Below the pieces are notes generated by a model. That model was given only the letters and a program-made list of their open reading frames with translations, had not been told where the DNA came from and did not search any database. Positions 5,153-22,602 of a stretch of DNA of 64,000 nt are shown in pieces. Source of the stretch: a phage; the NCBI GenBank assembly GCA_018027755.1, contig GCA_018027755.1_4098.1; one strand, given 5' to 3'. Every line of letters starts with the position of its first letter. The first letter of the stretch is position 1. The position numbers were made by a program, and so were the translations under genes.

Positions 5153-5158
5153 TAAAAA

Positions 5159-5182
5159 ATCCAGTACTATTAAGTACTGGAT
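5159..5182 (+). other. perfect stem-loop ATCCAGTAC-N6-GTACTGGAT
   Basis: 9-bp inverted repeat built from two AGTACT hexamers between genes; no T-run. Confidence 0.35.
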
Positions 5183-5194
5183 GTATAAGGAGTT

Positions 5195-5857
5195 ATGATG
5201 AAATCAAAATTAGGTTTGTTTTATAAAAACTATTTTGTTAAACAACGTAAATTTATAAAAAAATATTTCTCTGGCGAGAAGTCTAGTCCTATAATCTTTA
5301 AAAGACCAAGTTATAATACTTACTTAGCTGGTGCTAAACAGTCTAAGAAATTTATTACTCTTTTACATAAAAACAAAATTAAAGCTTCTTATGTTGAAAC
5401 GAGAAGAAACTCATCAATAACTCCTGGTGATTTTATTGAGTACGGATGTTTCAATATTAAGTACAATGATAATACATACTTTATGGATATTGATTGTAAT
5501 ACATCCAATCTTTTTAACATTGTAGTAAATCCATTAAAACAATATAATGTTTATGGTGATTCTATTATCAAATTAATCAAAAACAAAGATAGCTTTGATT
5601 TTGAAATAAATGTTTTAGATGATAATTTTGACGAAGTACCAGTAAACCCTGAAATCTGTGATATTTTAAACAGTTTAAAAGGTAGTACCTACAATATATC
5701 ATCTGATTTAATGTTTCAGTACTCATTAATCCATAAAGATATTGAAAAGTATATTGAATGCTCCAGAATTTTGAATTTTCTCTATGATGAATTTAAAAAG
5801 AGTTCTAAAATAACTGCATACACTTTGTACAATATTCCTAAAATGGTGAATCTTTAA
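5195..5857 (+). CDS. hypothetical protein (220 aa), basic N-terminus
   Basis: ORF track; AAGGAG RBS. Confidence 0.6.
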   Translation: MMKSKLGLFYKNYFVKQRKFIKKYFSGEKSSPIIFKRPSYNTYLAGAKQSKKFITLLHKNKIKASYVETRRNSSITPGDFIEYGCFNIKYNDNTYFMDIDCNTSNLFNIVVNPLKQYNVYGDSIIKLIKNKDSFDFEINVLDDNFDEVPVNPEICDILNSLKGSTYNISSDLMFQYSLIHKDIEKYIECSRILNFLYDEFKKSSKITAYTLYNIPKMVNL

Positions 5858-6261
5858 CAAATACAGTACTGGCAACTCCACCGTCTGTAATATATTGTCC
5901 AGTACTGTAAATTTGTATACCATCGGTTAAGTAAGTTCTGTATAAAGTTGCTGTAACATATACGTTATTCATATTCATCTCTATTGGTAGTACACATTTG
6001 GTATAGGCCGACACATCTGTTTGTGTACCTATACCCAATTGACCTGCGTTATCGCCTGTGTTATTACCAGTTGCGTAAACACCCAATGAAGTTATAATAT
6101 GATTAGAAAAATATGAATAACCCAAACTCTTGAGATTCTCTACTGTACAACGTACCATCTGACATAAGGGCAAAAACTGTCGTATCAGATGAAGCTATTT
6201 TTGTAACAGAAGGTTGTATGTTCTTTTTTGATGATGTGATAATTCTTCGAAAGGGTAGCAT
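5838..6261 (-). pseudogene. decayed MLPF-leader RCC1-like paralog (frameshifted, truncated)
   Basis: ATG 6261 after GGAGG gives MLPFRRIITSS..DGTLYSRE then stop after about 53 codons; GQLGIG-containing continuation is in another frame (track ORF 5838..6173). Confidence 0.55.
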
Positions 6262-6353
6262 TGTATCCTCCAAATGTAAATCGTTATTATATTTAGGACA
6301 AAAAAATGCCAGTACAAGGCACTGGCATAAAATCTAAGCAGAAGGCATATCCT

Positions 6354-6464
6354 TCATCTTAATAAATGAAAATTGTGTACCAGTATTTGTGGTTCCAATT
6401 TCTTTATTTCAGGAAGAGTTGGTTTAATATTTCCGTACTTTAACATTCTTCCAAAAGGTAACAT
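6354..6464 (-). pseudogene. MLPF-leader stub (36 codons)
   Basis: Canonical cassette upstream; MLPFGRMLKYGNIKP.. terminates after 36 codons. Confidence 0.5.
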
Positions 6465-6539
6465 AAATCCCTCCTTTATTCATTATACTATATTTAATAC
6501 AAAAAAAAAGAAAAGCCAGTATCAAGTACTGGCCCTATA
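6465..6539 (-). promoter_or_regulatory. array cassette boundary (terminator hairpin + TATAAT + AAGGAGG)
   Basis: Minus-strand reading: GCCAGTA..TACTGGC hairpin, T-run, TATAGTATAATGAATAAAGGAGG, ATG. Confidence 0.55.
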
Positions 6540-7889
6540 TTATTGTAAAGGTATTTCAGTCAAGGTACTATATGTTGTGCCATTATACACACCACGCCAG
6601 TATAATTTACCTTCAGTACTAACCACTAATAATCCATATGTTGTAAACCCAAGAGTACCACCAACATACATAGCATCTTTGATTTTAATACCAATGTCTT
6701 CATATGTAAATGAAGCGACTGCTCCCGCTTGCCATGAAGGACTAGCATAGTAATCACTATAAACACCATGTGCTTTATATATTGATGTTGTTCCGGGTTC
6801 AAAAATTACAGTTCCACAGTAGTTCATTCGTATTTTGGTACTGGATGAAGTTGGTACATTTATACCTACATCATCTTTAATCCCTGTAGTTAGGACGTTA
6901 AAACCACCCGCTACACGGTTGACGTCATTCGCACCGATTAGAAACATACCAACGTTGTAGCCCATATAATACACACTACTTGTACCATTCCAGAAAGAAA
7001 AACCACCACCATTACCACAGCGATATAGTTGTGAATTTGAGCAGTACATCATGCCTTCGTTTGTTGCATCAAAATCATCTGCTGTTCCGATTACAGCCAC
7101 TGTAGTCCACGTTTTAATCACTTGGTTTGTACTAGCTGGTTTTTGTATACCATATCGTATATTATATCCCTTACCTACGATTGTACCATCTTCTAATTTG
7201 GCATAAAGTACAGGTCTATTACCAACAAAATACACATTATTATGTGACATGTCTATTGTGCATCTTAATGAAACTGCTTTTTGTGTCAATTGATTATCTT
7301 TAGTAAAAGAAGTAAAGTAGTAATCTGATGTGGAGTTGTTTATTAAACCTTGAATCGACAAACCCATATACCAGATTTCACCATTAGTGTTCAATGCTGC
7401 CAAAATACAACTATATTTTGAAGTGTATGCTGGGGTTAATGATGTTGCTGGACCTTTATCATATCCACCACAGAATACCATTTCCACAACTTCACCTACG
7501 TTAGAAAAATAAGAAGATACATTTATAAAACCATTTGTTATAAAAGGTGCTGTAGTTATACTTGAATGTGTGAATATTCCATTTGCATATACACCACAAA
7601 AATGATATGAACCATCATTATCTTTAACTATTATTCCATTTGATAGTAGCCAAAAATTGTTTACATTTTTTCGTACTAATTCAATTCCTGTACCATTGGT
7701 TGGTGTTATACCAAAAGAAACATATTTTGTTTGACCAATACCATATAAATTTCCATTTGATGCTAATATTGCACCAAACCAATTACCACCACCATTCCTA
7801 TCATGACCCATACCAATGGAGTCGAATTTCTTCACAGTAGAGGCTTCAACTTTATTTCCGTACTTAACCATTCTCGCAAAAGGTAACAT
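6540..7889 (-). CDS. MLPF-leader RCC1-like beta-propeller repeat protein (449 aa)
   Basis: ORF track; leader MLPFARMVKYGN; G/T/S/N/Y-rich with RCC1-like G-x-N-x-x-G-Q/E/K-L/F-G-x-G repeats. Confidence 0.75.
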   Translation of the reverse strand: MLPFARMVKYGNKVEASTVKKFDSIGMGHDRNGGGNWFGAILASNGNLYGIGQTKYVSFGITPTNGTGIELVRKNVNNFWLLSNGIIVKDNDGSYHFCGVYANGIFTHSSITTAPFITNGFINVSSYFSNVGEVVEMVFCGGYDKGPATSLTPAYTSKYSCILAALNTNGEIWYMGLSIQGLINNSTSDYYFTSFTKDNQLTQKAVSLRCTIDMSHNNVYFVGNRPVLYAKLEDGTIVGKGYNIRYGIQKPASTNQVIKTWTTVAVIGTADDFDATNEGMMYCSNSQLYRCGNGGGFSFWNGTSSVYYMGYNVGMFLIGANDVNRVAGGFNVLTTGIKDDVGINVPTSSSTKIRMNYCGTVIFEPGTTSIYKAHGVYSDYYASPSWQAGAVASFTYEDIGIKIKDAMYVGGTLGFTTYGLLVVSTEGKLYWRGVYNGTTYSTLTEIPLQ

Positions 7890-7959
7890 AATTCCCTCCT
7901 TTATTCATTATACTATATTTAACCAAAAAGAAAAGCCAGTACAGAGTACTGGCATTGTA
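7890..7959 (-). promoter_or_regulatory. array cassette boundary (terminator hairpin + TATAAT + AAGGAGG)
   Basis: Same conserved cassette as at 6465. Confidence 0.55.
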
Positions 7960-9093
7960 TTAAGGTTTATTTTTATAATTAATTTCTACATAGTTACGTT
8001 GTGTTCCAGTATATCCTGGAACATTCCCTATATTTCCATTACCTGCACCAAACAGACGTTCTCCGACTGCAAAATATGTCCCATAGAAACAACCATCAAA
8101 CACAGGAACATCATTATAATTTGATATGTAATTATCCATTGAATCCATTCTAGTGTATGCAGTCAGAGTTACATTTGTACCTATACCATATGCACCATAA
8201 GGGTTAGTACCAGCAACATAATACCCAGTGGGTGTACATATTACTGGTGAATTTGCCCCTGATCTCGTGTGGATAAATCTAAATGTACCTTCAGGTACTG
8301 GTGCTTCTTTACTGAATAATGTTGTAGCTACTACTGGGTAATCAATACCATAACTATTACCACTCAACCACGTTTTACCATCACTATCTTTGAATAATGA
8401 ACAGGATTGTGTGCATCCGAACAGATTCAAATTGGTTACATTTGGAAATTTACTAATTTGTGTATATACCAGAACTGTGGTTGCGGCAGCACTACCAAGT
8501 TGTCCACGACCATTATCACCCGCACTGTACATGTACCCATCGGTCTTTAATATTATACTAGCGTTTCCTAAAATATCAAAATCAACAACATCCGTTTGTG
8601 TTAATGTAGCTATAGGATAACGAAAATTCACTGCCTCACCAGTACCAAATTGACAATTGGTGTTTACCCCACATCCATATAAGTTGCCGTTTTGCATTAA
8701 TATAAACAAACCTGTTGTCATTTTAATTTTCTTAATATTAAGAATATCTATATCTTGGAATATGTGTGTTACATTTACAAATGTGGTTGAGTTAACAGTA
8801 CTTGAACCATAATAAGAACCGTTCCCGCTACCAAAGAATTCATCGCCTTTTCTGTACATTGCACATAGACTGCCACCCCATACATCATCAACTCCAGTGT
8901 CAATTTGAATAACTGAAGTAACACTAGTTGTTGCACCAGTGCCAAGTTCACCACCTGAATTGAATCCAAAACCATACAAATCTCCACTTTCGGTGAGCAC
9001 CAAAACACTGTTATTGGTTGTGCATGAAATCTTTTTGATATTATTAGATGGTCTTTTATTTCCGTACTTAACCATTCTTGCAAAAGGTAACAT
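7960..9093 (-). CDS. MLPF-leader RCC1-like beta-propeller repeat protein (377 aa)
   Basis: ORF track; leader MLPFARMVKYGN; SGDLYGFGFNSGGELGTG-type repeats. Confidence 0.75.
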   Translation of the reverse strand: MLPFARMVKYGNKRPSNNIKKISCTTNNSVLVLTESGDLYGFGFNSGGELGTGATTSVTSVIQIDTGVDDVWGGSLCAMYRKGDEFFGSGNGSYYGSSTVNSTTFVNVTHIFQDIDILNIKKIKMTTGLFILMQNGNLYGCGVNTNCQFGTGEAVNFRYPIATLTQTDVVDFDILGNASIILKTDGYMYSAGDNGRGQLGSAAATTVLVYTQISKFPNVTNLNLFGCTQSCSLFKDSDGKTWLSGNSYGIDYPVVATTLFSKEAPVPEGTFRFIHTRSGANSPVICTPTGYYVAGTNPYGAYGIGTNVTLTAYTRMDSMDNYISNYNDVPVFDGCFYGTYFAVGERLFGAGNGNIGNVPGYTGTQRNYVEINYKNKP

Positions 9094-9166
9094 GATTTCT
9101 CTCCTTTATCCATTATACTATATTTAATACAAATAAGAAAGCCAGTACAGAGTACTGGCTTTTACA
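9094..9166 (-). promoter_or_regulatory. array cassette boundary
   Basis: Conserved hairpin/T-run/TATAAT/AAGGAG cassette. Confidence 0.55.
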
Positions 9167-10357
9167 TTACAATTGTCTAGGTGTATCCAGAACATATCTA
9201 TTTGTTTTAGGACCACCATCATCATAAGTTCCGGTTGAATATATATTTTTCATATCAGCAGTTAGGAAAGTACGTAACGACCCTCGATATATTTTTATTT
9301 TATCATACATAGAATATGTTATTTCTGACGGCAATGGACATGCAGTAAATTTACCAATGGTAACATTAGAACCAACACCCAATGAACCAGCATAACTACT
9401 CGCATTTAAACCTGTTGCATATACACCAGTACTCGTAACTAGTATACTAGATTGTGCTGGGTATCCAGTATGGATTGAATAATAAGTACCGGGTGGTAAT
9501 GTAGCACTATTATTTCCTAAAACTCCATTAACAGTGCTAGATGTAGTTTTATTTCCCCATGCCCCATTATTAGCGTTACCACCTACTAGGAACTGACGTG
9601 CTCCTGTACTTGGATTCTCTACTAAAGCACTGACAGCACCAAATGAACAAACAGTATATTGTAATGTTTTTGTATATGTGGTACTTGGCTTATACAAAGT
9701 ATATTCATTAAATGGTGTCCATGTGGTACTAGTACTTATGCCAGATGTACTACCACCAATATATAAATTATTTTGTGTATCAAAAAACATTGCACAGTAA
9801 TTTGTTGACTGTATTTGTGCAATATCTACATCTGGTGTTACCGCTTTAACAAATGAACCATCTGATATTTGATAAGTAGTTCCTGTACCATCTGCGAATT
9901 GTCTAGCACTATTCCACCCTGTACTCCATATTGTATTATTATCCATTAAGAAAGTAAACCATGTAGTACCTGCATACATCTGTTTAATTGAAGTACTTGA
10001 ACTTTGTTTGTACAATTTTTCAATATATTGGTTATAACTTAAAAATGATGTAGTACTAGTTTCTAAACCAATATGACTACCATATCCACAATAAAAATAA
10101 TTTAAGTCCTTATCTTGAACTAACAAAGTTCCTTGTGTCATCCAGCAATCTTTGACATTTTCTCTAATTAATGTCCACGACCTTACTGCATTATTATTTC
10201 CTCTACCAAACTTCCCAAAACTATTACTGCCTCGTGCGTATAGTTGACCGTCGGTATAAAGTACAACAACCTCAGTATCAGTTGGTATTATTTTCTTAAT
10301 TTGTAGTGGTACAGGCACAATATTCCCATAATTCATCATTCTTGCAAAAGGTAACAT
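9167..10357 (-). CDS. MLPF-leader RCC1-like beta-propeller repeat protein (396 aa)
   Basis: ORF track; leader MLPFARMMNYGN; body near-identical to 13612..14802. Confidence 0.75.
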   Translation of the reverse strand: MLPFARMMNYGNIVPVPLQIKKIIPTDTEVVVLYTDGQLYARGSNSFGKFGRGNNNAVRSWTLIRENVKDCWMTQGTLLVQDKDLNYFYCGYGSHIGLETSTTSFLSYNQYIEKLYKQSSSTSIKQMYAGTTWFTFLMDNNTIWSTGWNSARQFADGTGTTYQISDGSFVKAVTPDVDIAQIQSTNYCAMFFDTQNNLYIGGSTSGISTSTTWTPFNEYTLYKPSTTYTKTLQYTVCSFGAVSALVENPSTGARQFLVGGNANNGAWGNKTTSSTVNGVLGNNSATLPPGTYYSIHTGYPAQSSILVTSTGVYATGLNASSYAGSLGVGSNVTIGKFTACPLPSEITYSMYDKIKIYRGSLRTFLTADMKNIYSTGTYDDGGPKTNRYVLDTPRQL

Positions 10358-10436
10358 AATTCCCCTCCTTATTCATTATACTATATTTAATACAAATAAG
10401 AAAGCCAGTATCAAGTACTGGCATAGTTTTATAGTA
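10358..10436 (-). promoter_or_regulatory. array cassette boundary
   Basis: Conserved cassette. Confidence 0.55.
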
Positions 10437-11546
10437 TCATTTCGGCATTGTAATTGCAGACCATGAGTTCGTGGTAATAGGACCTGGCACATACAAAAAA
10501 GAACCACAAGCATAAATTTGATTATTACCATCAAATACTATACTAAAATGTGCACATGTGTATAATGCTGATTTTTCTGGGTTGTAATTATCTAAAGTTA
10601 GTGTATTGGTGAATCTACTCAAACCACCACCAGAACCATTTCTACCAAATTCACCAGTACTATATATCTTTCCTTCGGTTGTTGCGTACATATTAACATA
10701 TGAAGTTGCACTTGATTTTGATATTTTATGTATCTTACTATCAATAGTAGTGGAGTTAAATGCAAATGGATATACTTGTGTGTTCGTTGTAATACCGTTA
10801 CCAAGTTGACCAACATACTGCCAACCTGCGTTGTATATATTGCTGGCTGAATAAGCAAGAGTACCAGTACTGTTACCACCAAATAGTTTAACACTTGTTA
10901 ACCTTCTTACTAGTGTAGTATACTGTCCGGGACTTACGCCAAGTGAACCATACCCACTGCTCCCGCAACCGAGAAGTTCATTATTTGATGTTAATATTAA
11001 TGTGTTATTCTGTGTACCCAATATATCAAGGACTGTATTAGCTCCGGTATTAACAACTGAAACAAAAGTACTCTGAGCCGTGGAATACCCACCACCGAGT
11101 GAATAGTTACCATTCATGCCTCTACCATAAACAATCGAACCACTAGCATCAACGTAGTGCATTGTATCTGCACCAATTGATATCATTTTAATATTAGATA
11201 TATGTGGAAATGAAGAAGTAACATTCAAACCACCCAACGGAATCATAGTATTTCCTGTGCCTAATTGTGTGGTAACTCCATGCATTATGAATTCTTCACC
11301 CTTGAGATAAAGAATATTGTACGCACCAGCCCATGCATCAGTAACACCTTCTGAAATTAATATCCAAGTATTTCTTGTTGCTGTATTTTCAACGTTTAAC
11401 TGCAAATACGTATTAACCCCACAACCATAAAGTGAGCCATCGCCATAGAGGACGTACAAATTATCAAGACCGCACAGTACTTTCTTTATCTTTGGAGCTT
11501 CAGGTGCAATATTTCCGTACTTAACCATTCTTGCAAAAGGTAACAT
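10437..11546 (-). CDS. MLPF-leader RCC1-like beta-propeller repeat protein (369 aa)
   Basis: Track ORF trimmed to MLPF ATG; AGGAGTG RBS only 8 nt after upstream gene stop. Confidence 0.7.
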   Translation of the reverse strand: MLPFARMVKYGNIAPEAPKIKKVLCGLDNLYVLYGDGSLYGCGVNTYLQLNVENTATRNTWILISEGVTDAWAGAYNILYLKGEEFIMHGVTTQLGTGNTMIPLGGLNVTSSFPHISNIKMISIGADTMHYVDASGSIVYGRGMNGNYSLGGGYSTAQSTFVSVVNTGANTVLDILGTQNNTLILTSNNELLGCGSSGYGSLGVSPGQYTTLVRRLTSVKLFGGNSTGTLAYSASNIYNAGWQYVGQLGNGITTNTQVYPFAFNSTTIDSKIHKISKSSATSYVNMYATTEGKIYSTGEFGRNGSGGGLSRFTNTLTLDNYNPEKSALYTCAHFSIVFDGNNQIYACGSFLYVPGPITTNSWSAITMPK

Positions 11547-11554
11547 ATTCACTC

Positions 11555-12730
11555 CTATTCTGGTAAAATCATTTTCTTCATTTTAACTTGTTGTGTACCT
11601 GGACTCTGTTCCTGAAACATAGACCCGTTACCACACCAGTACACCTCATTAGTACCCACTAACGCGTATAACACACCAGAACCACCTTGTACTGAAAATG
11701 CATTAACATCTGGTGCAACATCCATATCCTCATATTGTACCTGGTGGTAATAAGATCTTTCTGATGCAGTAGTAACAGGCCAACCAAGAGGAACACCACT
11801 ACCACATGTATAAAGTTTACCATTCTGTGTCATTGCCATTATAAAATAATTCAAACTGTGATTGTTCATCGACCCAGCATCTGGTATAATACCACTAATT
11901 GCAGGAGTGGTACTAAATGGACTCATGATAATAGTAGTGTCGCCATACCCTATTCCTAAACAATAATCAGTGTTTTTTCCAGCAGTATATACATTAATCT
12001 TATTTCTATTGGATGTAAGTACTGAAGTGGTTTCAGGAGTACATGAAATACCAATAACTGTTCCAGATATATCAGTACTTACCGTAAATGTCGAAAGTTT
12101 AGAAGAACCTGACCCTAAGTTGTAACTTGCGTTATTCCCACATCTGTAGTATTGATTATTTTTAACATAATGGAAAGCATCCCCAGCCGTTGTTCCCGCA
12201 ATTATAGTAACTCCAGTAGCAATCTGAATTGGCGTTGTTTTTCTACCAGTAACACCCAATGCACCTCCTGTATTACGCCCAATCCCATATAAGTCCCCAT
12301 TACTTAACAAAATCAATAACGCACCATTTGATGCAGTAGTTTCAGTAGCAGCTATATCTACTACTGTAGTAAGTGCTGGTATTGTAGACAATAAAGATGT
12401 GATATTAGTCCATCCAGGAACTGGTGATGCAGATACACCGACATAACCCATTTGACCAGCTAAGTAAAATTCTCCGTCAGTCGTAAGTATAATTGTTGCT
12501 GCAAAGAAGCACCAAACATTAGAAACTTTATATGGACACTGTACCCACCCATTTTGCACATACGCAGTGCTATTATTTCCTAGCATATAGTGTGCACCAT
12601 TTCCACGTAGATATAAGTTACCACTATCAAATAACATACCCATATGTGATGGAGATGTACTTATCTTCATAACACCTGAAGGTGCTGGAACTCTGTTTCC
12701 GTACTTAACCATTCTTGCAAAAGGTAACAT
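11555..12730 (-). CDS. MLPF-leader RCC1-like beta-propeller repeat protein (391 aa)
   Basis: Track ORF trimmed to MLPF ATG after AAGGAGG; leader MLPFARMVKYGN. Confidence 0.7.
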   Translation of the reverse strand: MLPFARMVKYGNRVPAPSGVMKISTSPSHMGMLFDSGNLYLRGNGAHYMLGNNSTAYVQNGWVQCPYKVSNVWCFFAATIILTTDGEFYLAGQMGYVGVSASPVPGWTNITSLLSTIPALTTVVDIAATETTASNGALLILLSNGDLYGIGRNTGGALGVTGRKTTPIQIATGVTIIAGTTAGDAFHYVKNNQYYRCGNNASYNLGSGSSKLSTFTVSTDISGTVIGISCTPETTSVLTSNRNKINVYTAGKNTDYCLGIGYGDTTIIMSPFSTTPAISGIIPDAGSMNNHSLNYFIMAMTQNGKLYTCGSGVPLGWPVTTASERSYYHQVQYEDMDVAPDVNAFSVQGGSGVLYALVGTNEVYWCGNGSMFQEQSPGTQQVKMKKMILPE

Positions 12731-12801
12731 ATTTCCTCCTTTATTCATTATACTATATTTAATACAAAAAGAAATGCCAGTATCAAGTACTGGCCTATAT
12801 T
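12731..12801 (-). promoter_or_regulatory. array cassette boundary
   Basis: Conserved cassette. Confidence 0.55.
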
Positions 12802-13539
12802 TTAGACTGAATTGTTAGGATAATATCTCCCACGTCCCCATATTATTCGCACAGCACCACCACCAGCAGCCGTATAAGAAAAATTATCCCATATACTACC
12901 ACCACCACCATACATCTTACCAGCACCACCACTACCAGCACCACCATTATATGAACCATCGTATCTACCGCCAATACCATTAGCACCTTGAACAATGATA
13001 CCAGTACCACCACCCGTACCAATGAACGAGGTATTATAGAATGCACCACCACCACCGCCGCCGCCAGCACCATTTTCACCAGTGATTGCATCTCCGTTAC
13101 CACCTTTACCAGTGTAGCCACCAGCACCACCACCAATGACTGCACCACCACTTACACCAGCGTTGCCCCCATTACCACCACCATCATTAATAGCGTTAGC
13201 AGCTTTCCCACCTAGTCCACCAACCCTATATTCACCAGTGAAGCTAACACATAGTTTTTCAGTTCCACGATATAAACCGTTTTCAACTGCTGTAGTAGTG
13301 TTGGGATGTGTAAGAGAAACACTTAAGTACTCACCACTAGTAACCGGAATATTATTACGCCACGATAAGCCGCCGCCAGCACCACGTTGACCACCCGGCG
13401 AAATAACACATACTGATATTTCGGTAACGCTAGCAGGAACTGTAAATTGTGTTGTTCCTATTGTCGTGATTAATTGTTCACCATGTGGCTTATATTCAAT
13501 TTCATTCCCGTACTTAATCATTCTTCCAAAAGGTAACAT
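12802..13539 (-). CDS. MLPF-leader glycine-rich protein (245 aa)
   Basis: ORF track; leader MLPFGRMIKYGN but body is Gly-rich (runs of GGG/GxG) and unlike the RCC1-like paralogs. Confidence 0.7.
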   Translation of the reverse strand: MLPFGRMIKYGNEIEYKPHGEQLITTIGTTQFTVPASVTEISVCVISPGGQRGAGGGLSWRNNIPVTSGEYLSVSLTHPNTTTAVENGLYRGTEKLCVSFTGEYRVGGLGGKAANAINDGGGNGGNAGVSGGAVIGGGAGGYTGKGGNGDAITGENGAGGGGGGGAFYNTSFIGTGGGTGIIVQGANGIGGRYDGSYNGGAGSGGAGKMYGGGGSIWDNFSYTAAGGGAVRIIWGRGRYYPNNSV

Positions 13540-13611
13540 AATTCCCTCCTTTATTCATTATAATATATTTAATACAAAAAAGAAAAGCCAGTACAAAGTA
13601 CTGGCATTATA
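13540..13611 (-). promoter_or_regulatory. array cassette boundary
   Basis: Conserved cassette. Confidence 0.55.
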
Positions 13612-14802
13612 TTATAACTGTCTTGGAGTATCCAGTACATATCTATTTGTACGAGGACCACCATCATCATCAGTTCCTGTTGAATATATATTTTTCATAT
13701 CAGCAGTTAGGAAAGTACGATACGAACCGCGATATATTTTAATTTTATCATACATAGAATATGTTATTTCTGACGGCAATGGACATGCAGTAAATTTACC
13801 AATGGTAACATTAGAACCAACACCCAATGTGCCAGCATAACTACTCGCATTTAAACCAGTTGCATATACACCTGCACTCGTAACTAGTATACTAGATTGT
13901 GTTGGGTATCCAGTATGAATTGAATACAAAGTACCGGGTGGTAAGGTTGTACTATTATTTCCTAAAACTCCATTAACAGTGCTAGATGTAGTTTTATTTC
14001 CCCATGCTCCATTATTAGCTAATCCACCAACTAGAAACTGACGTGCTCCTGTATTTGGATTCTCCACCAAAGCACTGACTGAACCCATTGAGCATCCAGT
14101 GTATTGTAACGTTTTTGTGTATGTGGTACTTGGCTGATATAAAGTATATTCATTATATAAAGTCCATGTAGTGCTGGAACTTATACCGGATGTACCACCA
14201 CCAATATATAAATTATTTTGTGTATCAAAAAACATTGCACAGCTATTTGTTGACATTATTTGTGCAATATCAACATCTGGTGTTACAGCTTTAACAAATG
14301 AACCATCGGTTATTTGTTGAGTTTTTCCAGTACCATCAGCGAATTGTTTAGCCCCACTCCACCCAGTACTCCATATTGTATTATTATCCATTAAGAAAGT
14401 AAACCATGTAGTACCTGCATACATCTGTTTAATTGAAGTACTTGAACTTTGTTTGTACAATTTTTCAATATATTGGTTATAACTTAAAAATGATGTAGTA
14501 CTAGTTTCTAAACCAATATAACCACCATAGCCACAATAAAAATAATTTAAGTCCTTATCTTGTACTAACAAAGTTCCTTCTGACATCCAACAATCGTTAA
14601 CGTTTTCTCTAATTAATGTCCATGTTCTTAATGCAGTGTTGTTTCCTCTCCCAAACTTCCCAAAACTATTATTGCCTCGTGCGTATAGTTGACCATCAGT
14701 ATAAAGTACAACAACATCACTATTGATTGGTATTATTTTCTTAATTTGAAGAGGCTCAGGTGTAATATTTCCATAATCAAACATTCTAACAAAAGGTAAC
14801 AT
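13612..14802 (-). CDS. MLPF-leader RCC1-like beta-propeller repeat protein (396 aa)
   Basis: Track ORF 13612..14859 trimmed to MLPF ATG; leader MLPFVRMFDYGN; body near-identical to 9167..10357. Confidence 0.75.
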   Translation of the reverse strand: MLPFVRMFDYGNITPEPLQIKKIIPINSDVVVLYTDGQLYARGNNSFGKFGRGNNTALRTWTLIRENVNDCWMSEGTLLVQDKDLNYFYCGYGGYIGLETSTTSFLSYNQYIEKLYKQSSSTSIKQMYAGTTWFTFLMDNNTIWSTGWSGAKQFADGTGKTQQITDGSFVKAVTPDVDIAQIMSTNSCAMFFDTQNNLYIGGGTSGISSSTTWTLYNEYTLYQPSTTYTKTLQYTGCSMGSVSALVENPNTGARQFLVGGLANNGAWGNKTTSSTVNGVLGNNSTTLPPGTLYSIHTGYPTQSSILVTSAGVYATGLNASSYAGTLGVGSNVTIGKFTACPLPSEITYSMYDKIKIYRGSYRTFLTADMKNIYSTGTDDDGGPRTNRYVLDTPRQL

Positions 14803-14873
14803 ATTTCCTCCTTTATTCATTATACTATATTTAATACAAAAAAGAAAAGCCAGTATCAAGTACTGGCCTATAT
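14803..14873 (-). promoter_or_regulatory. array cassette boundary
   Basis: Conserved cassette. Confidence 0.55.
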
Positions 14874-16043
14874 TTAAACTGGCGAATCTAATATAAATTC
14901 TAAACTACTAATGCCACCATATGTGACATCTGTTCCCGTGCTATATACAAAATTACCATCAGTTATATAAGTTCGGTTATAACTACCTGCCATCTGTGAC
15001 TTACTATAATCAAACCCATCAGGTACGATTGCTTTGGTATATACTAATGCATTAGTAGATGTACCAATACCTAACATACCAGCTTGTGTAGATTGATTGT
15101 AGCCGCAACAATATATACCATCTGTTGTAGCAATAACTTGGTTATAATATGAAGTATTGTTAGCAATGCTTACTACATCACCAGGTGGCATTAGTGATGC
15201 TGTTTGTACCTCAAATGCTCTATAATCTTTGAGAGAACCATCTTTCCCATCTGCTTGTGCACCAAATATTCTTGAACCACCATTTGCGATGATAGTTTTA
15301 CCAGTGGGATCAGTGCCTATTGCCATTGCCATTGAAGTACCATTATTCACATAGTACTTTATATTAATTGTATTACTTAAGCTGGTAGGAGCACCATAAT
15401 ATATATTATATAACTTACTTCCTGAACTTGTAACTGCATTGACTCTTCCTGTATAAAATAACCATCCTTGGTTTGTAACATAACCGTGCATTAAATTACT
15501 TGCAAACAATTTAACAGGTAATTGATTTGCTGCGGTAGGAACAGTACTTTTGACGAATCTACCAGAAACATGGTTAATTGTTGTCCCATCACCCAACTGA
15601 CCATCCGACCCTACTCCAGTACTCCATATTGTTTGGTCTGATAGTAACACACTTGTAGTCTGATAACTAACGGCTATATCTAATATTGGTAATGTTAATG
15701 TATTGAATATAGGCATAGCAGATGTCCATATTGATACTCCTGACCCTTTCATACCAACAGTTGTTGAACTTCCACTGTACCATATTTCATTATTGCTTTT
15801 CTTAACAACTATCGACGTGGCTCCCATCCAAAAATCTTCAACACCAGAAGTACTAAAAGTCCATGTAGTAACAGTATTTTTGTGACCTAAACCCAAAATA
15901 CCATATGCATTATCACCACGCACATATAAATCACCACTGTTTGTTAAAACAGCAACATTATAGTTGTTAGCAAGTATTTTTTTAATATTTGGTTTAGCAG
16001 GTGCAATATTCCCGTAATCAAACAATCTCACAAAAGGTAACAT
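14874..16043 (-). CDS. MLPF-leader RCC1-like beta-propeller repeat protein (389 aa)
   Basis: Track ORF trimmed to MLPF ATG; leader MLPFVRLFDYGN; SGDLYVRGDNAYGILGLG repeats. Confidence 0.7.
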   Translation of the reverse strand: MLPFVRLFDYGNIAPAKPNIKKILANNYNVAVLTNSGDLYVRGDNAYGILGLGHKNTVTTWTFSTSGVEDFWMGATSIVVKKSNNEIWYSGSSTTVGMKGSGVSIWTSAMPIFNTLTLPILDIAVSYQTTSVLLSDQTIWSTGVGSDGQLGDGTTINHVSGRFVKSTVPTAANQLPVKLFASNLMHGYVTNQGWLFYTGRVNAVTSSGSKLYNIYYGAPTSLSNTINIKYYVNNGTSMAMAIGTDPTGKTIIANGGSRIFGAQADGKDGSLKDYRAFEVQTASLMPPGDVVSIANNTSYYNQVIATTDGIYCCGYNQSTQAGMLGIGTSTNALVYTKAIVPDGFDYSKSQMAGSYNRTYITDGNFVYSTGTDVTYGGISSLEFILDSPV

Positions 16044-16114
16044 AATTCCTCCTTTATTCATTATACTATATTTACCCCAAAAAGAAATGCCAGTACTTGA
16101 GTACTGGCATTATG
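16044..16114 (-). promoter_or_regulatory. array cassette boundary
   Basis: Conserved cassette. Confidence 0.55.
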
Positions 16115-17224
16115 TTATTTTGGTAAATCAATTTTAGTAAAGACTGCAACATCTGCACTTGCACCTGGAATGGCGTAATACGATCCAGTACTATATACAT
16201 TCCCGTCTTTGGTTAATAATGATGTTAATCCGTCACTAAAAGCAACATCACTAATCTCACTAACTTCTACAGGTAATTGTAAATTAGCAGCACTATAGAT
16301 AGCACCCGTTTGAGAATTGTTTAATCCCAAACCACGGTTTCCCCCAATACCTTTCTGATATGCACTAGTTAATATAATTTGCGTAGCCGTGCTTGTTGCC
16401 TCTGAATTTGTCATAAACAAAGGTGAATTATTAGGTAAAGTACTTACAGGAACTGCTTTGAATGTAGTTGAATCTGAACTAAGAAAGTTTGGAGTTGTAC
16501 CACATGTGAAATATGATGTACCATTATAGTAATTGAGTGTATGTCCACCAATAGCTGCATCTATTACACCAGAACTACGCAGTCCCCAAATGTTAACTTG
16601 TGTTCTGTTCCCTGTGCCATGTAATCCACGGTCATTCCACCCTGAACTATATAACTTATTATCTATGCTAATATACATACTATCATTAGGAGTAGACATA
16701 ACTTTACGCACATTAGAAGCACATAGTGTTAATGTATATATTGATGAAGAACCAATCCCCAATACACCACGGTATCCATTAGCCCCAGCACCATAGAGTA
16801 CTGAACTTGAACTGAGTACAAATATTACACCACCATTGCATACAATATTAGCAATTTGATTCACAGGAATTGTATTTGTAAACCACTCCGTTCTATCAAC
16901 TAATGTAGTACTGTAAGAAGTTGTTGATGATGATGTGAACCAAAATGTTTCACCTGATGTCCATATCGTATTGTCATTTTTAATAATAACAAGTGTTCGT
17001 CCTCCAGTGAAAAAATTAGAAACATCTGCACTTACTAATGTCCAAGAAGATACCGTGTTTTTATTACCATTTCCAGATTCACCACCTTGATTTCTGCCTA
17101 TGTAATACAATTCATGTGAATCAGTCAATACGAATTGACCTTGAGTAGAAGCACCAACTTTAATTATATTTTTAGGACCAGAGGTAATATTCCCATAATC
17201 AAATAGTCTTACAAAAGGTAACAT
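16115..17224 (-). CDS. MLPF-leader RCC1-like beta-propeller repeat protein (369 aa)
   Basis: Track ORF trimmed to MLPF ATG; leader MLPFVRLFDYGN; RBS 8 nt after upstream gene stop. Confidence 0.7.
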   Translation of the reverse strand: MLPFVRLFDYGNITSGPKNIIKVGASTQGQFVLTDSHELYYIGRNQGGESGNGNKNTVSSWTLVSADVSNFFTGGRTLVIIKNDNTIWTSGETFWFTSSSTTSYSTTLVDRTEWFTNTIPVNQIANIVCNGGVIFVLSSSSVLYGAGANGYRGVLGIGSSSIYTLTLCASNVRKVMSTPNDSMYISIDNKLYSSGWNDRGLHGTGNRTQVNIWGLRSSGVIDAAIGGHTLNYYNGTSYFTCGTTPNFLSSDSTTFKAVPVSTLPNNSPLFMTNSEATSTATQIILTSAYQKGIGGNRGLGLNNSQTGAIYSAANLQLPVEVSEISDVAFSDGLTSLLTKDGNVYSTGSYYAIPGASADVAVFTKIDLPK

Positions 17225-17232
17225 AATTCCTC

Positions 17233-18435
17233 CTATTGTTGCCATAACTGCGTTGGCATTAATGTTAGTGTAGTAATACTATAAGTGCCATCAGGCAATC
17301 TACCACCATTACCATTCCAGCCACCACATGCATATAATTTATAATCTTTAGTAATTATTATGGTTCTGCTCCAATCTTTAGATGCCATAAGAACATTGTC
17401 ATAACCACCACTTATTGCATTAAGATTAAAAATATTCCAAGTCCTAACTAATGTATTAGTTCCATTACCTTCTTGACCGTATCCGTTAGCACCACTACTT
17501 CTAACATATGGTGCGTATTGTGCCATAGGTGCACCAATTGATGCATTTCCCATATTACTTGGACAAATAAAAGTACTGTACTTACTTACATCAACCGTGA
17601 CCGATGTGTTCCTAATTGGTGTTAGCTGATTTACCGATGTAGTCGTACCATTACCAGCTTGTCCAGTACTGTTAGCCCCGCTATAATATACAGGCCCACC
17701 AGTAGTAAACCACCAAGTAACATCGTATGTAGTACTAATATGTTCGACATCACTCATCACATATTTGTTCAAATATATCATAGAACTAGCACCACAACCA
17801 CTTTCACCGAAGTTATCCTTACCACAAAACCATGCCTTTTTATTTGATTTAATATAGTGCGTTCCTTGTAATGAACATGCCATATGTGTAACTTCACCCA
17901 TATTAGTCATAACTGTTAGTGTAGGTATGGAATTTTGATTACCAGACCCACATTCACCATTGGTATTTCTTCCACACGCAATTACTCTACCATCGGTTAA
18001 TAATATTCTAGTACTTTCACCTATATATACACTCTTGATCATATTAGCCATAACACCAATTTTATTAAATGAAGCAGTAACATCAGTCCATGTTCTCAAA
18101 TAACCATTAACAGGTGTTGCATCTCCATAATCAGAAAATGCACCAACCGACCCAGTGTAGTATATTTTATTATCCAAATCAATCATCAATGAACCTTGAA
18201 CACCAAGCCAAAAGGCTGCACATCGCGTTGCAAGTACTGTAAATGACGCAACTGCTGCTGAATTCCCAAGACCAAATTGATAAAAGTTATTACTACCATA
18301 ACCATATAAAGTATTAGTTGGGCTATGTAGATACATACAGTTTGTATAATGTTGTTGTAAAACATCTGAGAACTCTACAGGTTCTGGACCTGGTGCAATA
18401 TTTGCGTACTTAACCATTCGTGCAAAAGGTAACAT
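17233..18435 (-). CDS. MLPF-leader RCC1-like beta-propeller repeat protein (400 aa)
   Basis: ORF track; leader MLPFARMVKYAN. Confidence 0.7.
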   Translation of the reverse strand: MLPFARMVKYANIAPGPEPVEFSDVLQQHYTNCMYLHSPTNTLYGYGSNNFYQFGLGNSAAVASFTVLATRCAAFWLGVQGSLMIDLDNKIYYTGSVGAFSDYGDATPVNGYLRTWTDVTASFNKIGVMANMIKSVYIGESTRILLTDGRVIACGRNTNGECGSGNQNSIPTLTVMTNMGEVTHMACSLQGTHYIKSNKKAWFCGKDNFGESGCGASSMIYLNKYVMSDVEHISTTYDVTWWFTTGGPVYYSGANSTGQAGNGTTTSVNQLTPIRNTSVTVDVSKYSTFICPSNMGNASIGAPMAQYAPYVRSSGANGYGQEGNGTNTLVRTWNIFNLNAISGGYDNVLMASKDWSRTIIITKDYKLYACGGWNGNGGRLPDGTYSITTLTLMPTQLWQQ

Positions 18436-18507
18436 ATTTCCCTCCTTTATTCATTATACTATATTTAATACAAAAAGAAATGCCAGTATCAAGTACTGGC
18501 ATAGTAT
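18436..18507 (-). promoter_or_regulatory. array cassette boundary
   Basis: Conserved cassette. Confidence 0.55.
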
Positions 18508-19635
18508 TCAAAAAGGTAAATCAATTTGCTTAGTAATAATAGTATCTAACGGTATTGAACACAATGAGAAATTCTTTCCACCCGTATTTTTAGGATTATA
18601 TCCATTCATCCATACATTATTACCTTCGTAAAATGTATTCCAGTATAAAGACCCACTATATCGTGTATTCGAATTGAACGATGTAAAATTGAATTCTTGA
18701 AATGCTGTAAAATATGGAAGGGAACTTGAACTACTTCCCGTAAATGGGGTATGCCCAGTTGCTATTAGTTTGTTTGTATCTGCATTAATTAAAAATACAA
18801 CACTAGTCGAATAGTCCAACGAATCAGGATGATATATATTACTCATATCACCTATAGTAAAACCAACATCAAAAACTTTACTATGTGCACCACTACCAGC
18901 AAAAGTAGTTCCAGTTGCATATATTTTATTATCAGATGTTATCATTACAAAACCAACACCAGAAACAAAACTGCATTTTATATCATAAGATATATCATCA
19001 AACAACGGAACAAATGTGGTTGCATCACCCGATGTTGCTTTAACTTGAAAGCTGTTATTTGAACCTGAACCATATACAGTTCCATCGTTTTTAATCTTAA
19101 ACAATGTATCGCCAAGGTAACCGCCAAATATATTATCCACATTAGTGTCAAGTACAGTCCACGCTGAAACATAATTTTTATGTCCTAAACCTAATGCACC
19201 ACTTCGATTCCATCCTCTTCCATAAAGTGTTCCGTCTTTCATTAATATAAATGCTGTATAACCACATAACATTTTTTTAATTTGGGTAACATCTATACCA
19301 GTGAAATACACAGCCCAGTCAGTATATCCTTGTTGGAAAGTATTAGAATTCGTGAATGCATATGTTGAACCTGAACCATATATTTTATCACCTTTAATAA
19401 CAACGGAAAACGATCCTAACCATAAGTCATCAACTTCAGTTGTGATTTGTTGAACTGCTCCTAACGATACAAACTTTGTACTTAAACCCGCATTATAGTT
19501 TGAATCTTCACCGTGTGCATATACAGTGCCATCTTGCATTAGAAACATTTCAAGAGTGTAACTAACAACACTTTTCTTTATATTATTAACTTCGATTATA
19601 TTCCCATAATCAAACATTCTAACAAAAGGTAACAT
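18508..19635 (-). CDS. MLPF-leader RCC1-like beta-propeller repeat protein (375 aa)
   Basis: ORF track; leader MLPFVRMFDYGN. Confidence 0.7.
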   Translation of the reverse strand: MLPFVRMFDYGNIIEVNNIKKSVVSYTLEMFLMQDGTVYAHGEDSNYNAGLSTKFVSLGAVQQITTEVDDLWLGSFSVVIKGDKIYGSGSTYAFTNSNTFQQGYTDWAVYFTGIDVTQIKKMLCGYTAFILMKDGTLYGRGWNRSGALGLGHKNYVSAWTVLDTNVDNIFGGYLGDTLFKIKNDGTVYGSGSNNSFQVKATSGDATTFVPLFDDISYDIKCSFVSGVGFVMITSDNKIYATGTTFAGSGAHSKVFDVGFTIGDMSNIYHPDSLDYSTSVVFLINADTNKLIATGHTPFTGSSSSSLPYFTAFQEFNFTSFNSNTRYSGSLYWNTFYEGNNVWMNGYNPKNTGGKNFSLCSIPLDTIITKQIDLPF

Positions 19636-19707
19636 AATTCCCTCCTTTATTCATTATACTTTATTTAATACAAATAAGAATTCCTGTATCGAGTACTGGC
19701 ATTCAAT
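19636..19707 (-). promoter_or_regulatory. array cassette boundary
   Basis: Conserved cassette. Confidence 0.55.
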
Positions 19708-20856
19708 TTATTGTAAAAAGGACATATCTACTTCTGTATAACTAAGAATGTTTTGACCAGCAATTCCACCCATTACTACTATTGCATACCCACAATAATA
19801 TAATTTCCCAGTGTCCGTAAGTATAAGTGAACCAGAAGGTGTTCTTACCAAATTACACGAACTATTAAAAGAAGTATACGAAGGAGTATAGGAGTACTGA
19901 TTAATATTATTACCAACACCTAATTGACCACCCCTATTCGAACCAGATGCATAAAGTACTTCATCTGCTTTGACAATATGTGATGCCATGTTAGCAACAC
20001 ATGCATATACACCATATACCCCTGTACTCAATAATGTAGGAGTCTTGTATTGAATATCAGTACTAGTAGATGTTCCACCTGTGCCAAATTCATTACCATA
20101 TTGTGCTCCGTACTGCTTCCCACATGCGTACAAATTATTATCCGATTTGATAAAAAATGTACTCTGATAACTTACATCAAAATCTATAACATCCGAAGAA
20201 ATCATCGTTACCCCAGTAATCGAAGTTTGATTACCAGTACCCAACTGGTAGTAATAGTTAAAACCACAACCCCATAAAGTATTATCTTCTCGCAAATAAA
20301 TGTTACCAACAGCCTTTTTAACAGATGTTATAGTACTGACCTTCTTGAATGTATTAAATGAATCAATGTTAGTACCATCTCCAAAGGAGGATATGTTCGA
20401 TGCGTTATTAGCACCACAACAATATAATGTCCCATCCTTCAGTACTAAATTTACCTTCATATCATTAAAACTGCTCATGTACTCAATATCAGATACACTA
20501 ATACCACCTGATGTTATCCACGTAGTACAGTCCGTCCATAACGTCTTCCTATCAGTTACCCCAGTAAATGCCTTCGTGTTACCAGTGATAAACACTTTAC
20601 CAGTACCCTTTTCTTCATACAATTGACAATCACTACTGTTATCTTCCAATAAAACCCTCTGTACATTCTCTGCACAAAGAATAAATTTACTCGAAGCTAC
20701 TCCTGTACCAGTACCCCAATTCGTCGCAGAAGATGCATACAACTTGTGTGTTAGTGTATCATGCAAATACATAGAACCACTAGAATATATTTTAAAACGC
20801 CCTTCTTTCTCAGGTATAATATTCCCATAATCAAACATTCTAACAAAAGGTAACAT
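19708..20856 (-). CDS. MLPF-leader RCC1-like beta-propeller repeat protein (382 aa)
   Basis: Track ORF trimmed to MLPF ATG; leader MLPFVRMFDYGN. Confidence 0.7.
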   Translation of the reverse strand: MLPFVRMFDYGNIIPEKEGRFKIYSSGSMYLHDTLTHKLYASSATNWGTGTGVASSKFILCAENVQRVLLEDNSSDCQLYEEKGTGKVFITGNTKAFTGVTDRKTLWTDCTTWITSGGISVSDIEYMSSFNDMKVNLVLKDGTLYCCGANNASNISSFGDGTNIDSFNTFKKVSTITSVKKAVGNIYLREDNTLWGCGFNYYYQLGTGNQTSITGVTMISSDVIDFDVSYQSTFFIKSDNNLYACGKQYGAQYGNEFGTGGTSTSTDIQYKTPTLLSTGVYGVYACVANMASHIVKADEVLYASGSNRGGQLGVGNNINQYSYTPSYTSFNSSCNLVRTPSGSLILTDTGKLYYCGYAIVVMGGIAGQNILSYTEVDMSFLQ

Positions 20857-20958
20857 ATTTCCTCCTTTATTCATTATATCATATTTACCCCATAAACAAA
20901 ACCCTTGACAACCTTCCAGTACTGATGTACTATAGAAGGAATATAAGGAGAACTACAC
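20857..20958. promoter_or_regulatory. divergent promoter region
   Basis: Minus-strand cassette promoter/RBS for 19708..20856; plus-strand TTGACA-N17-TACTAT and TAAGGAG before ATG 20959. Confidence 0.5.
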
Positions 20959-21186
20959 ATGACAAATACTCTTAAGTACTACCTCAATACTCTAAATGAA
21001 CTAGAGTACGCGAAGTTTCTCGCGGATAGTTCGTGGCTAATTGAGCTAAAAACACATAACAGTACTGGATGTAACCTAATGCTGAACAATGCACTTGATA
21101 CCCTTGTAGTGAGTATTTTACACAGCAACATCTGCGGGGATAGAAACAAACAATTATCAAAAATCTTAGTACTGCTATCTATATGA
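20959..21186 (+). CDS. small protein, tandem family A
   Basis: ORF track; first of a run of 59-75-aa paralogs. Confidence 0.5.
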   Translation: MTNTLKYYLNTLNELEYAKFLADSSWLIELKTHNSTGCNLMLNNALDTLVVSILHSNICGDRNKQLSKILVLLSI

Positions 21187-21386: not shown

Positions 21387-21387
21387 T

Positions 21388-21784: not shown

Positions 21785-21836
21785 AAGGTACACCAGGGAC
21801 CGAGTACTTTAATATAGTAAGGCTAATTACATTATA

Positions 21837-22022: not shown

Positions 22023-22030
22023 GGTAATAT

Positions 22031-22216: not shown

Positions 22217-22224
22217 GGTACTCT

Positions 22225-22404: not shown

Positions 22405-22412
22405 GGAATAAT

Positions 22413-22592: not shown

Positions 22593-22602
22593 AGGAAACC
22601 AA

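Follow-up and report, generated by a model that had tools for sequence, protein, structure and literature searches.

RCC1-like gene clusters have been described in the jumbo coliphages 121Q, PBECO4 and phAPEC6 (gp549-gp010) and for GAP32_001 (PHROG 4219). Buttimer 2017 (PMC5259590) listed 121Q_234-238, 240-242 and 244-248 as multi-copy RCC1-like genes, Wagemans 2020 (PMC7247149) counted eleven copies in phAPEC6 and speculated on a role in the order of the packaged DNA, and both papers, in the parts available to us, treat the paralogs as DNA-condensation candidates. Here we analyzed a 64,000-nt stretch of phage DNA (contig GCA_018027755.1_4098.1 of GenBank assembly GCA_018027755.1; hereafter the window) from an Asteriusvirus, that is, a 121Q/PBECO4/phAPEC6-like jumbo coliphage and Rak2-like jumbo myovirus. 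It carries the same genes as an array on the minus strand, with 12 intact open reading frames (ORFs) of 245-449 aa within 5838-20856 and two decayed copies at the downstream end. Each intact product opens with a 12-residue leader, M-L-P-F-x-R-x-x-x-Y-G/A-N, and a repeated cassette of ~70 bp occupies most junctions. The window matched 37 phage records, comprising 121Q/PBECO4-type jumbo coliphages and Salmonella relatives, at 85-96% identity in patches and with coverage of at most 37%.

A prediction made earlier from this sequence had held the architecture to be unknown from any phage. On this point it was mistaken: the array is published (PMC5259590, PMC7247149), and dozens of GenBank records label the paralogs 'regulator of chromosome condensation', 'putative DNA condensation protein' or even 'HERC1' and 'RPGR'. 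In the available parts of the two papers, neither the shared leader nor its occurrence on bodies other than RCC1 nor the junction cassette is mentioned. Literature searches with literal leader strings returned irrelevant matches only, those combining jumbo phage, RCC1 and propeller gave nothing beyond the phAPEC6 paper, and neither the Iyer 2021 jumbo-phage review nor the rV5 proteome paper mentions these proteins. The array is thus already known. What seems to be new is the leader, as a lineage-specific tag that spans body types and genera, together with the cassette fused to it.

The capsid-targeting sequences (CTSs) of T4 (IPI, IPII, IPIII and Alt; the polymorphic IP locus of T-even phages) resemble the array leader in being short N-terminal peptides on divergent proteins of a variable locus, and they determine virion incorporation, the role that would also fall to the leader. 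The two sequences are unrelated; moreover, the CTS is cleaved by gp21 at (L/I)-x-E and its cargo is basic and internal, whereas the array proteins have no conserved cleavage motif, are neutral and show folds of the exposed type. The early-promoter stem-loop units (PeSLs; Arbiol 2010, PMC2839356; Comeau 2014, PMC4122927) are, like the array cassettes, small repeated terminator-plus-promoter units beside variable genes; PeSLs coincide with insertions, deletions, duplications and swaps, as the array cassettes may also do. PeSLs carry early sigma-70 promoters, whereas the array cassette lacks a -35 element, has its own TAAATA-N3-TATAAT motif and runs through the ribosome-binding site (RBS) into the first 12 codons, so that recombination preserves the protein tag. 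In several receptor-binding systems (the anchor and branching domains of the CBA120 tailspike proteins and of RaK2 gp526-534, the S16 adhesin gp38 on the gp37 tip, Pam3 gp24 and the Bxb1 gp33 'wing brush'), a conserved docking N-terminus carries a variable C-terminal module and several alternative modules are placed on each virion, as proposed here for the array. The anchors known so far consist of helical bundles or of folded domains ~100 residues long and usually belong to trimeric fibers or spikes, in contrast to the predicted disordered 12-mer and apparently monomeric globular modules of the array.

We favor the reading, at a probability of roughly 0.55, that the array encodes a lineage-specific virion-attachment tag on exchangeable adhesin-like modules, which form a mixed repertoire and evolve through the cassettes. 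Each accessory virion protein would combine a short flexible N-terminal tag (M-[LI]-P-F-x-R-[IM]-x-x-Y-G-N) with an exchangeable beta-rich binding module, which in the window is an RCC1-type propeller in eleven cases and a TNF-like plus glycine-rich module in one. The tag would dock every member onto one common virion site, most likely outside, on tail, fiber or hair structures, and particles would display a mixed repertoire of adhesin-like modules. Most genes would be separate transcription units consisting of an intrinsic terminator, a TAAATA-N3-TATAAT promoter-like element, a strong RBS and the leader, with a TAAATA core shared with the phage's T4-type late promoters. The repeated 5' units would serve as recombination substrates, which would explain duplication, internal deletion, body replacement and leader gene conversion. 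Within this scheme the gene set, the folds, the spread of the leader and, from published mass spectrometry, the presence in virions are shown, whereas we infer that the leader acts as a tag and that the proteins are external, serve as adhesins and are made late.

Comparison of the 12 leaders in the window showed that M1, L2, P3, F4, R6, Y10 and N12 are invariant (7/12 positions) and that G11 occurs in 11 of 12, with two subtypes, MLPF[AG]RM[VIM][KN]Y[GA]N (A-type) and MLPFVR[ML]FDYGN (V-type). The original prediction had called the leader invariant, which overstates its conservation; its count of 12 intact and two decayed paralogs agrees with the ORFs and leader ATGs. It had also described the bodies as highly diverged, and the leaders indeed showed a mean pairwise identity of 80% against a median local identity of 28% for the bodies, with eight of the 66 body pairs giving no BLAST match at all. 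Only five further columns were invariant across the bodies in the alignment of the 12 proteins, all of them glycines. In four genes the ORF lister chose an upstream in-frame ATG (MNKGGN-MLPF), which sits within the TATAATG of the cassette and has no Shine-Dalgarno sequence, and the MLPF ATG lies 4-6 nt past AGGAGG or, in three genes, a variant of it; the MLPF ATG is likely to be the true start. AlphaFold gave a predicted local distance difference test score (pLDDT) below 50 for residues 1-15 of the gene 11 propeller and residues 1-10 of the glycine-rich protein, with both bodies modelled confidently. The leader is accordingly predicted to be disordered on both body types and to lie outside either fold.

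Pfam RCC1 repeats were detected in ten bodies, with RCC1 or RCC1_2 E-values from 3e-12 to 2.5e-4. Nine of the ten passed the Pfam gathering cut-off, gene 4 reaching 21.2 bits against the required 22, and the whole-domain model WD40_RLD scored at best 114 bits, under its cut-off of 150 bits. The body of gene 12 had no Pfam match and was assigned to PHROG 4219 ('regulator of chromosome condensation') at an E-value of 3.6e-18. Gene 11, the one propeller paralog modelled, yielded an AlphaFold structure with a pLDDT of 81 and a predicted template-modelling score of 0.83. A Foldseek search with this model found UVR8 as the best match (TM-score up to 0.80), followed at lower scores by RPGR, HERC2 and RCC1, with E-values down to 3e-22. 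By profile matches and this model, eleven bodies are RCC1-like propellers, as had been proposed, and the seven-bladed fold is confirmed for the one modelled member.

The gene 7 body belongs to a separate glycine-rich family (PHROG 4474, E 9e-69). The protein itself had no direct Pfam match at E 0.01; it had 182 homologs at E <=1e-3, many of them with PF21722, and its nearest solved structures are all tail-fiber or tail-tip parts, the fold being common to Pam3 gp24 and Bxb1 gp33. Weak matches to PHROGs annotated as 'tail protein' also occurred among the bodies. The paralog proteins are near neutral, with pI values of 5.0-8.7 and net charges of -8 to +5.

A word-seeded protein search with one propeller returned only ten matches, and the distribution of the leader was therefore mapped by tblastn and a degenerate DNA pattern. 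The pattern identified 19 stretches, most of them multi-copy, on eight IMG/VR contigs, all from jumbo phages (seven of 348-378 kb and one of 109 kb). In total, 102-103 non-redundant leader genes from jumbo-phage contigs fell into at least 13 BLAST clusters of bodies, including RCC1-like (70 genes), LamG-like, Kelch propeller and glycine-rich proteins and several further clusters. The leader, sometimes in variant form, opens GAP32_001 and the 210-aa LamG-type protein GAP32_002, as well as tandem genes in Yersinia phage fHe-Yen9-04 (five) and Salmonella phage Munch (14). RCC1-like genes are absent from phage CBB, which carries ten leader genes (CBB_247, 536, 537 and 548-554) with LamG and Kelch bodies; of these, CBB_247 stands isolated, 170 kb from the CBB array. 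A search of other phages, which the original prediction had proposed, thus located the leader across jumbo-phage genera on RCC1, LamG, Kelch and glycine-rich bodies. Over 103 leader genes M1, P3 and F4 never vary, and Leu or Ile fills position 2 in 101; R6 is present in 80 (with Ile instead in 21), Y10 in 90, G11 in 84 and N12 in 89.

A second N-terminal peptide was observed in the Vequintavirinae, where the shared leader M[LN]EM[LM]x[LV]G stands on RCC1-like, glycine-rich and LamG proteins. Three adjacent RCC1-like paralogs of phage A73 (A73_252-254; locus 4788-8286) open with MLEM[LM]NLG, and glycine-rich homologs in ~150-kb phage contigs, including PVP-SE1 gp19, open with MLEML, MIELM, MLELL or MFEMM. 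In one such ~150-kb contig the LamG gene opens with MNEMLMLG and the glycine-rich gene with MLEMLTVG (locus 1459-2109 and 9001-9693). GAP32_002 aligned with that LamG protein at 35% identity (E 3e-25), and the alignment begins only past the leaders. By sequence comparison the bodies are homologous to those of the jumbo phages, and the same three body types thus stand behind two different N-terminal peptides, each specific to one myovirus lineage. Such a distribution would follow if the peptide fits a docking site peculiar to the lineage and the bodies are interchangeable cargo; neither fold constraints nor DNA homogenization readily account for it. The single RCC1-like gene of Cronobacter phage PBES02 (locus 6001-7197) opens with MFPFAIIPPF, possibly a degenerate form of the jumbo-phage leader.

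Published mass spectrometry showed that leader-bearing proteins and their relatives are present in virions, evidence of presence and not of location, and the virion association raised in the original prediction is in keeping with these data. In phAPEC6, gp003, 005, 006, 007, 009, 010, 549 and 551 were detected (PMC7247149), so that eight of the 11 annotated paralogs are among the 62 of 551 proteins found (hypergeometric P = 2e-6). JP4 virions contained JP4_581 and JP4_577, both of which open with the leader (published supplement, protein-level data). In CBB virions, eight of the ten leader genes were represented (CBB_247, 536, 537, 548, 549, 551, 552 and 553), with coverage of up to 50%; CBB_247, picked solely by its leader and far from the array, is thus a virion protein. 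GAP32_001 was reported as a structural protein identified by mass spectrometry (PMC5259590). In virions of W70, a phage related to A73, all three RCC1-like paralogs, W70_237-239, were found with spectral counts of 141-233, comparable to those of baseplate proteins. Taken across these phages, the comparative evidence strongly supports the leader as a putative virion-incorporation tag.

An external, adhesin-like role is favored because all recognizable bodies have folds typical of exposed carbohydrate- or protein-binding modules, because the nearest solved relatives of one body type are all tail-fiber or tail-tip parts, and because RCC1-like relatives adjoin tail-fiber genes elsewhere. A 1,074-aa tail-fiber gene immediately precedes the RCC1-like gene in PBES02, and phiCD211 encodes a 1,759-aa RCC1-repeat protein among its tail-fiber genes. 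Several points weigh against this reading. The external location is argued from fold analogy and from synteny in other phages, not this one. To our knowledge, no phage structure solved so far shows an RCC1, Kelch or LamG module tethered by a peptide of 12 residues, and no such modules are mentioned in the phiTE virion structure paper. Peptide counts were low (1-5) in phAPEC6 and JP4, where some co-purification is conceivable. Globular modules of 25-45 kDa cannot themselves be the ~120-nm hairs of phAPEC6 and CBB. We rejected the identification of the paralogs with these 'hairs', given the globular shape of the modules and the presence of hairs on CBB, which has no RCC1 genes; the paralogs may still sit along such fibers or at their tips. 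Finally, the closest precedent for a shared tag of 10-12 residues in a T4-related phage is the CTS, which directs proteins inside the head.

That precedent leads to the strongest of the rival explanations, a serious one although clearly less probable than the favored reading: the leader would be a CTS in the T4 sense, bind the prohead scaffolding core and place the paralogs in the head, perhaps in the inner body, and they would be ejected with the DNA as a diversifying set of effectors or anti-defense binders. T4 CTSs are N-terminal peptides of 10-19 residues, the first ten of which suffice; they occur on divergent internal proteins, carry large foreign proteins into the head and have been seen as an evolutionary loader of varied cargo. 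The phages in question are T4-related, with a gp21-like prohead protease, a scaffold, a gp55-like late sigma factor and TATAAATA late promoters, and phAPEC6 has an inner body. Low peptide counts would suit low-copy cargo, and the fast divergence between near-identical phages would also suit anti-defense proteins. However, no conserved Glu or (L/I)-x-E site was found in or after the leader: the first 12 positions hold no Glu, Glu occupies position 16 in just 16 of the 103 genes, and in several window paralogs none precedes the first strand. The proteins are near neutral, unlike the basic internal proteins of T4, and LamG lectins, Kelch and RCC1 propellers and TNF-like plus glycine-rich fiber-tip folds are those of exposed binding proteins. 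The same bodies also occur behind another tag in the Vequintavirinae, whose head module includes an S78-type protease and a Mu-like portal and is not of the T4 type.

Less probable still is that the leader has no function in the protein and is kept only as part of the 5' cassette, as a translation-initiation region or through homogenization by gene conversion. The leader is contiguous with a conserved RBS, its subtypes have spread between paralogs within a lineage, and codons 2-4 read TTA-CCT-TTT in 12 of the 12 window copies, against a 39-76% use of those codons in the bodies. Because these codons are identical in all 12 copies, DNA-level homogenization, to judge from them, also contributes to leader conservation in the window, a further point against the favored reading. 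Across genera, on the other hand, the residues are kept while the codons change: over the 103 genes P3 is encoded by CCA in 49, CCT in 48, CCG in five and CCC in one, Y10 by TAC in 50 and TAT in 40, and G11 by GGG in 38, GGA in 28 and GGT in 17. On this codon evidence, selection acts on the leader at the protein level. The leader is also kept in places where no cassette precedes it, namely on genes 4 and 9 of the window, on the isolated CBB_247, and in CBB and the Yersinia phage, whose arrays are tightly packed and operon-like and have no per-gene cassette; the implicit idea of the original prediction that the cassette explains the leader is not supported by these arrays. The strong enrichment of leader genes among virion-detected proteins, and the use of another leader for these body types by a second phage lineage, likewise oppose an explanation at the DNA level only.

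We give little credence to the current annotation, by which 'regulators of chromosome condensation' or 'DNA condensation proteins' organize the packaged 350-kb genome. The proteins are in virions, and such a role is raised as speculation in the phAPEC6 and W70 papers, but the inference stems from the family name alone, which was taken over from eukaryotic RCC1. RCC1-like propellers are generic interaction scaffolds, and the best structural match here was UVR8, not RCC1; the proteins are not basic, and no bacterial Ran exists. CBB packages a similar genome without RCC1-like genes and carries the same leader on LamG and Kelch proteins, and W70 has three copies despite a genome of 140 kb. Most improbable of all, the leader would be an N-terminal 'velcro' strand closing the propeller, since terminal strands contribute to blade closure in RCC1-type propellers and the paralog C-termini are semi-conserved too; we rejected this reading because AlphaFold leaves residues 1-15 unstructured, with the first strand beginning at residue 19, and because the leader also stands on non-propeller folds.

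The C-terminal 6-8 residues of the RCC1-like paralogs (6540-20856) follow a hydrophobic-D/T-hydrophobic-P-x pattern, e.g., IDLPK, ITMPK, LDTPRQL and LDSPV, and comparable endings occur in other genera (ITLPL, LPWK, LELPE). This semi-conserved C-terminus might provide a further contact or, alternatively, the strand that closes the propeller.

Should the 12-residue leader suffice for virion incorporation, it would explain a conspicuous, mis-annotated family that dozens of jumbo coliphages encode, phage-therapy candidates among them. It would also serve as a minimal tag that can be transferred to foreign proteins for their display or packaging on jumbo phages, like the T4 CTS, Hoc and Soc. Phages could then trade binding modules across lineages with no more than the exchange of a short address peptide, which bears on the evolution of host range and environmental adhesion. 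The tag-and-module reading, if true, would also correct the "DNA condensation" label that now steers genome-packaging hypotheses. More tentatively, large myoviruses might use short, lineage-specific address tags as a plug-in system, in which unrelated lectin-like modules (RCC1, Kelch, LamG, TNF-like plus glycine-rich) pass between phage lineages by a swap of the tag alone and are displayed as a mixture of adhesins. Rak2-like phages would then use MLPFxRxxxYGN and Vequintavirinae MLEMLxLG, with each tagged protein mounted on a common site, an extension that we put forward as possible and somewhat short of probable. In Asteriusvirus the tag together with a mobile terminator-promoter-RBS cassette would constitute a recombination-ready 'display cassette', a suggestion to be taken with similar reserve.

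The coordinates of the array genes and their expression signals are summarized in Table 1.

Table 1. Genes, decayed copies and expression signals of the leader-gene array (window coordinates; the leader ATG of each intact gene begins at its higher coordinate)
Feature	Coordinates	Strand	Description
Gene 1	19708-20856	-	382 aa; RCC1-like propeller; V-type leader MLPFVRMFDYGN; array head; Pfam RCC1, RCC1_2, WD40_RLD
Gene 2	18508-19635	-	375 aa; RCC1-like; V-type leader
Gene 3	17233-18435	-	400 aa; RCC1-like; leader MLPFARMVKYAN
Gene 4	16115-17224	-	369 aa; RCC1-like; leader MLPFVRLFDYGN; no cassette
Gene 5	14874-16043	-	389 aa; RCC1-like; leader MLPFVRLFDYGN
Gene 6	13612-14802	-	396 aa; RCC1-like; V-type leader
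Gene 7	12802-13539	-	245 aa; leader MLPFGRMIKYGN; non-propeller, predicted TNF-like plus glycine-rich fold
Gene 8	11555-12730	-	391 aa; RCC1-like; A-type leader
Gene 9	10437-11546	-	369 aa; RCC1-like; A-type leader; no cassette
Gene 10	9167-10357	-	396 aa; RCC1-like; leader MLPFARMMNYGN
Gene 11	7960-9093	-	377 aa; RCC1-like; member modelled with AlphaFold
Gene 12	6540-7889	-	449 aa; divergent RCC1-like body with insertions; A-type leader; PHROG 4219
Decayed copy 1	6354-6464	-	Intact cassette, leader, 24 more codons, then stop (36-codon remnant)
Decayed copy 2	5838-6261	-	Degenerate leader MLPFRRIITSSK; frameshifted, shortened RCC1-like body; degenerate cassette upstream (6262-6335)
Representative cassette	18436-18507	-	Hairpin ATGCCAGTACTTGATACTGGCAT, T-run, TAAATATAGTATAAT, GAATAAAGGAGG; repeat families D2 and D4, junction alignment
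Other cassette copies	19636-19707, 16044-16114, 14803-14873, 13540-13611, 12731-12801, 10358-10436, 9094-9166, 7890-7959, 6465-6539	-	
Array-head promoter-like element and RBS	20857-20900	-	GGGGTAAATATGATATAATGAATAAAGGAGGAAAT; core present, no canonical terminator hairpin upstream

At ten junctions, as originally predicted, the same unit of ~70 bp was found, comprising a stop codon, the hairpin (A)TGCCAGTACTYGRTACTGGC(AT), a T-run, TAAATATAGTATAAT, GAATAAAGGAGG, 4-6 nt and the ATG. Its 27-nt core TAAATATAGTATAATGAATAAAGGAGG occurs 11 times at <=3 mismatches, against 0 expected, and is confined to the array; terminator-like sites numbered 23 against 6.7 +/- 2.8 expected. The hairpin 3' arm is degraded at junction 19636-19707. 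The claim that every paralog has a cassette of its own stood for these junctions and failed for genes 4 and 9, which start 8 nt past the preceding stop. Gene 4 is probably translationally coupled to gene 3, given this spacing and the absence of a cassette.

Across the sequences scanned (the window, 120 kb of phAPEC6 and loci of three other lineages), TAAATA-N3-TATAAT occurred nowhere but ahead of leader genes, and a [GT]TAAATA core is common to the array heads of GAP32, CBB, the Yersinia phage and Munch. No TTGACA-like -35 element was detected in the array cassette, the best register being CTGGCA, 17 nt, TATAGT (9/12), and a sigma-70 consensus scan showed no enrichment (80 sites against 79 expected) and did not single out the cassette. 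In phAPEC6, structural genes have the T4-type late motif TATAAATA in front of them, and a gp55-like late sigma factor is among the products of the phage. The early genes at 27-46 kb of the window, on the plus strand, are preceded by at least 21 cassettes of a different kind, with TTGCAA or TTGACA, a 17-nt spacer, TATAAT, a GC-rich stem-loop, an RBS and the ATG. In letters, these cassettes at 27000-46000 read AAAAAGTACTTGCAA or TTGACA, 17 nt, GTATAATGTTTTACAT and a stem-loop such as GGGGAGAAATGGTTCTCCCC, with small ORFs following. They represent the PeSL architecture of T4-like phages, which has apparently not yet been reported for Asteriusvirus. Three promoter classes can thus be distinguished: since the array element has no -35 element and contains TAAATA, it would not belong to the early class, it also differs from the late motif of the structural genes, and it may be a dedicated variant of the late promoter.

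Comparison with related phages revealed duplication, body replacement and leader conversion within the array. Genes 6 and 10 are recent duplicates, the 300-nt repeat family D5 being 93% identical between them. Three bodies have no ortholog in phAPEC6 or 121Q, among them those of gene 2 (best body identity <=30%) and gene 11, of which phage Turkey3 carries a 99.7% identical copy (tblastn). Four orthologs have bodies 80-91% identical to their phAPEC6 or 121Q counterparts and leaders that match at only 8-9 of 12 positions and have switched to the V-type; gene 1 and phAPEC6 gp549, for example, share 91% of the body and 9/12 leader positions. The V-type leader occurs on five window genes and on none of their best matches in phAPEC6 or 121Q. 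Such switched leaders on similar bodies indicate that the 5' ends undergo gene conversion. Decayed copy 1 is the ortholog of phAPEC6 gp010 after an internal deletion of ~1,038 bp; this is the sole deletion mapped, and its endpoints lie inside the coding sequence, not in the cassettes. Decayed copy 2 is 99.6% identical to an equally decayed copy in phAPEC6.

The phAPEC6 record (MK817115) leaves two intact leader genes unannotated, one for a 396-aa RCC1-like protein (locus 12911-14101) and one for a 244-aa glycine-rich protein (locus 12105-12839), and has a 100-aa 'gp004' annotated in that place (locus 12105-14101). The published count of eleven phAPEC6 paralogs is therefore too low.

The array stands alone, flanked by plus-strand genes, and no tRNA genes were found in the window. 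Divergent from the array head, small paralogous ORFs of ~60-85 aa (MN..EYY...L...) lie on the plus strand at 20959-24800, and their upstream segments are repeated (repeat families D13 and D14). Positions 24933-27659 aligned with 353250-356000 of fEgEco12 at 93% identity. The terminal repeat of fEgEco12, experimentally confirmed at 20,993 bp, begins at 353,741, which places the boundary of the right terminal repeat at ~25.4 kb in the window. By this homology the array ends ~4.5 kb ahead of the right terminal repeat, the corresponding gap in CBB being 0.5 kb, and it is the last large gene block ahead of that repeat, as in CBB. Tandem 8-bp units (GGATGGCT / GACGGCTA / AACGGCTA) at 26173-26316 adjoin a GC-skew sign change and a rise in GC content at ~26 kb; the run is a candidate origin or, alternatively, a candidate binding array for a protein near the end of the genome.

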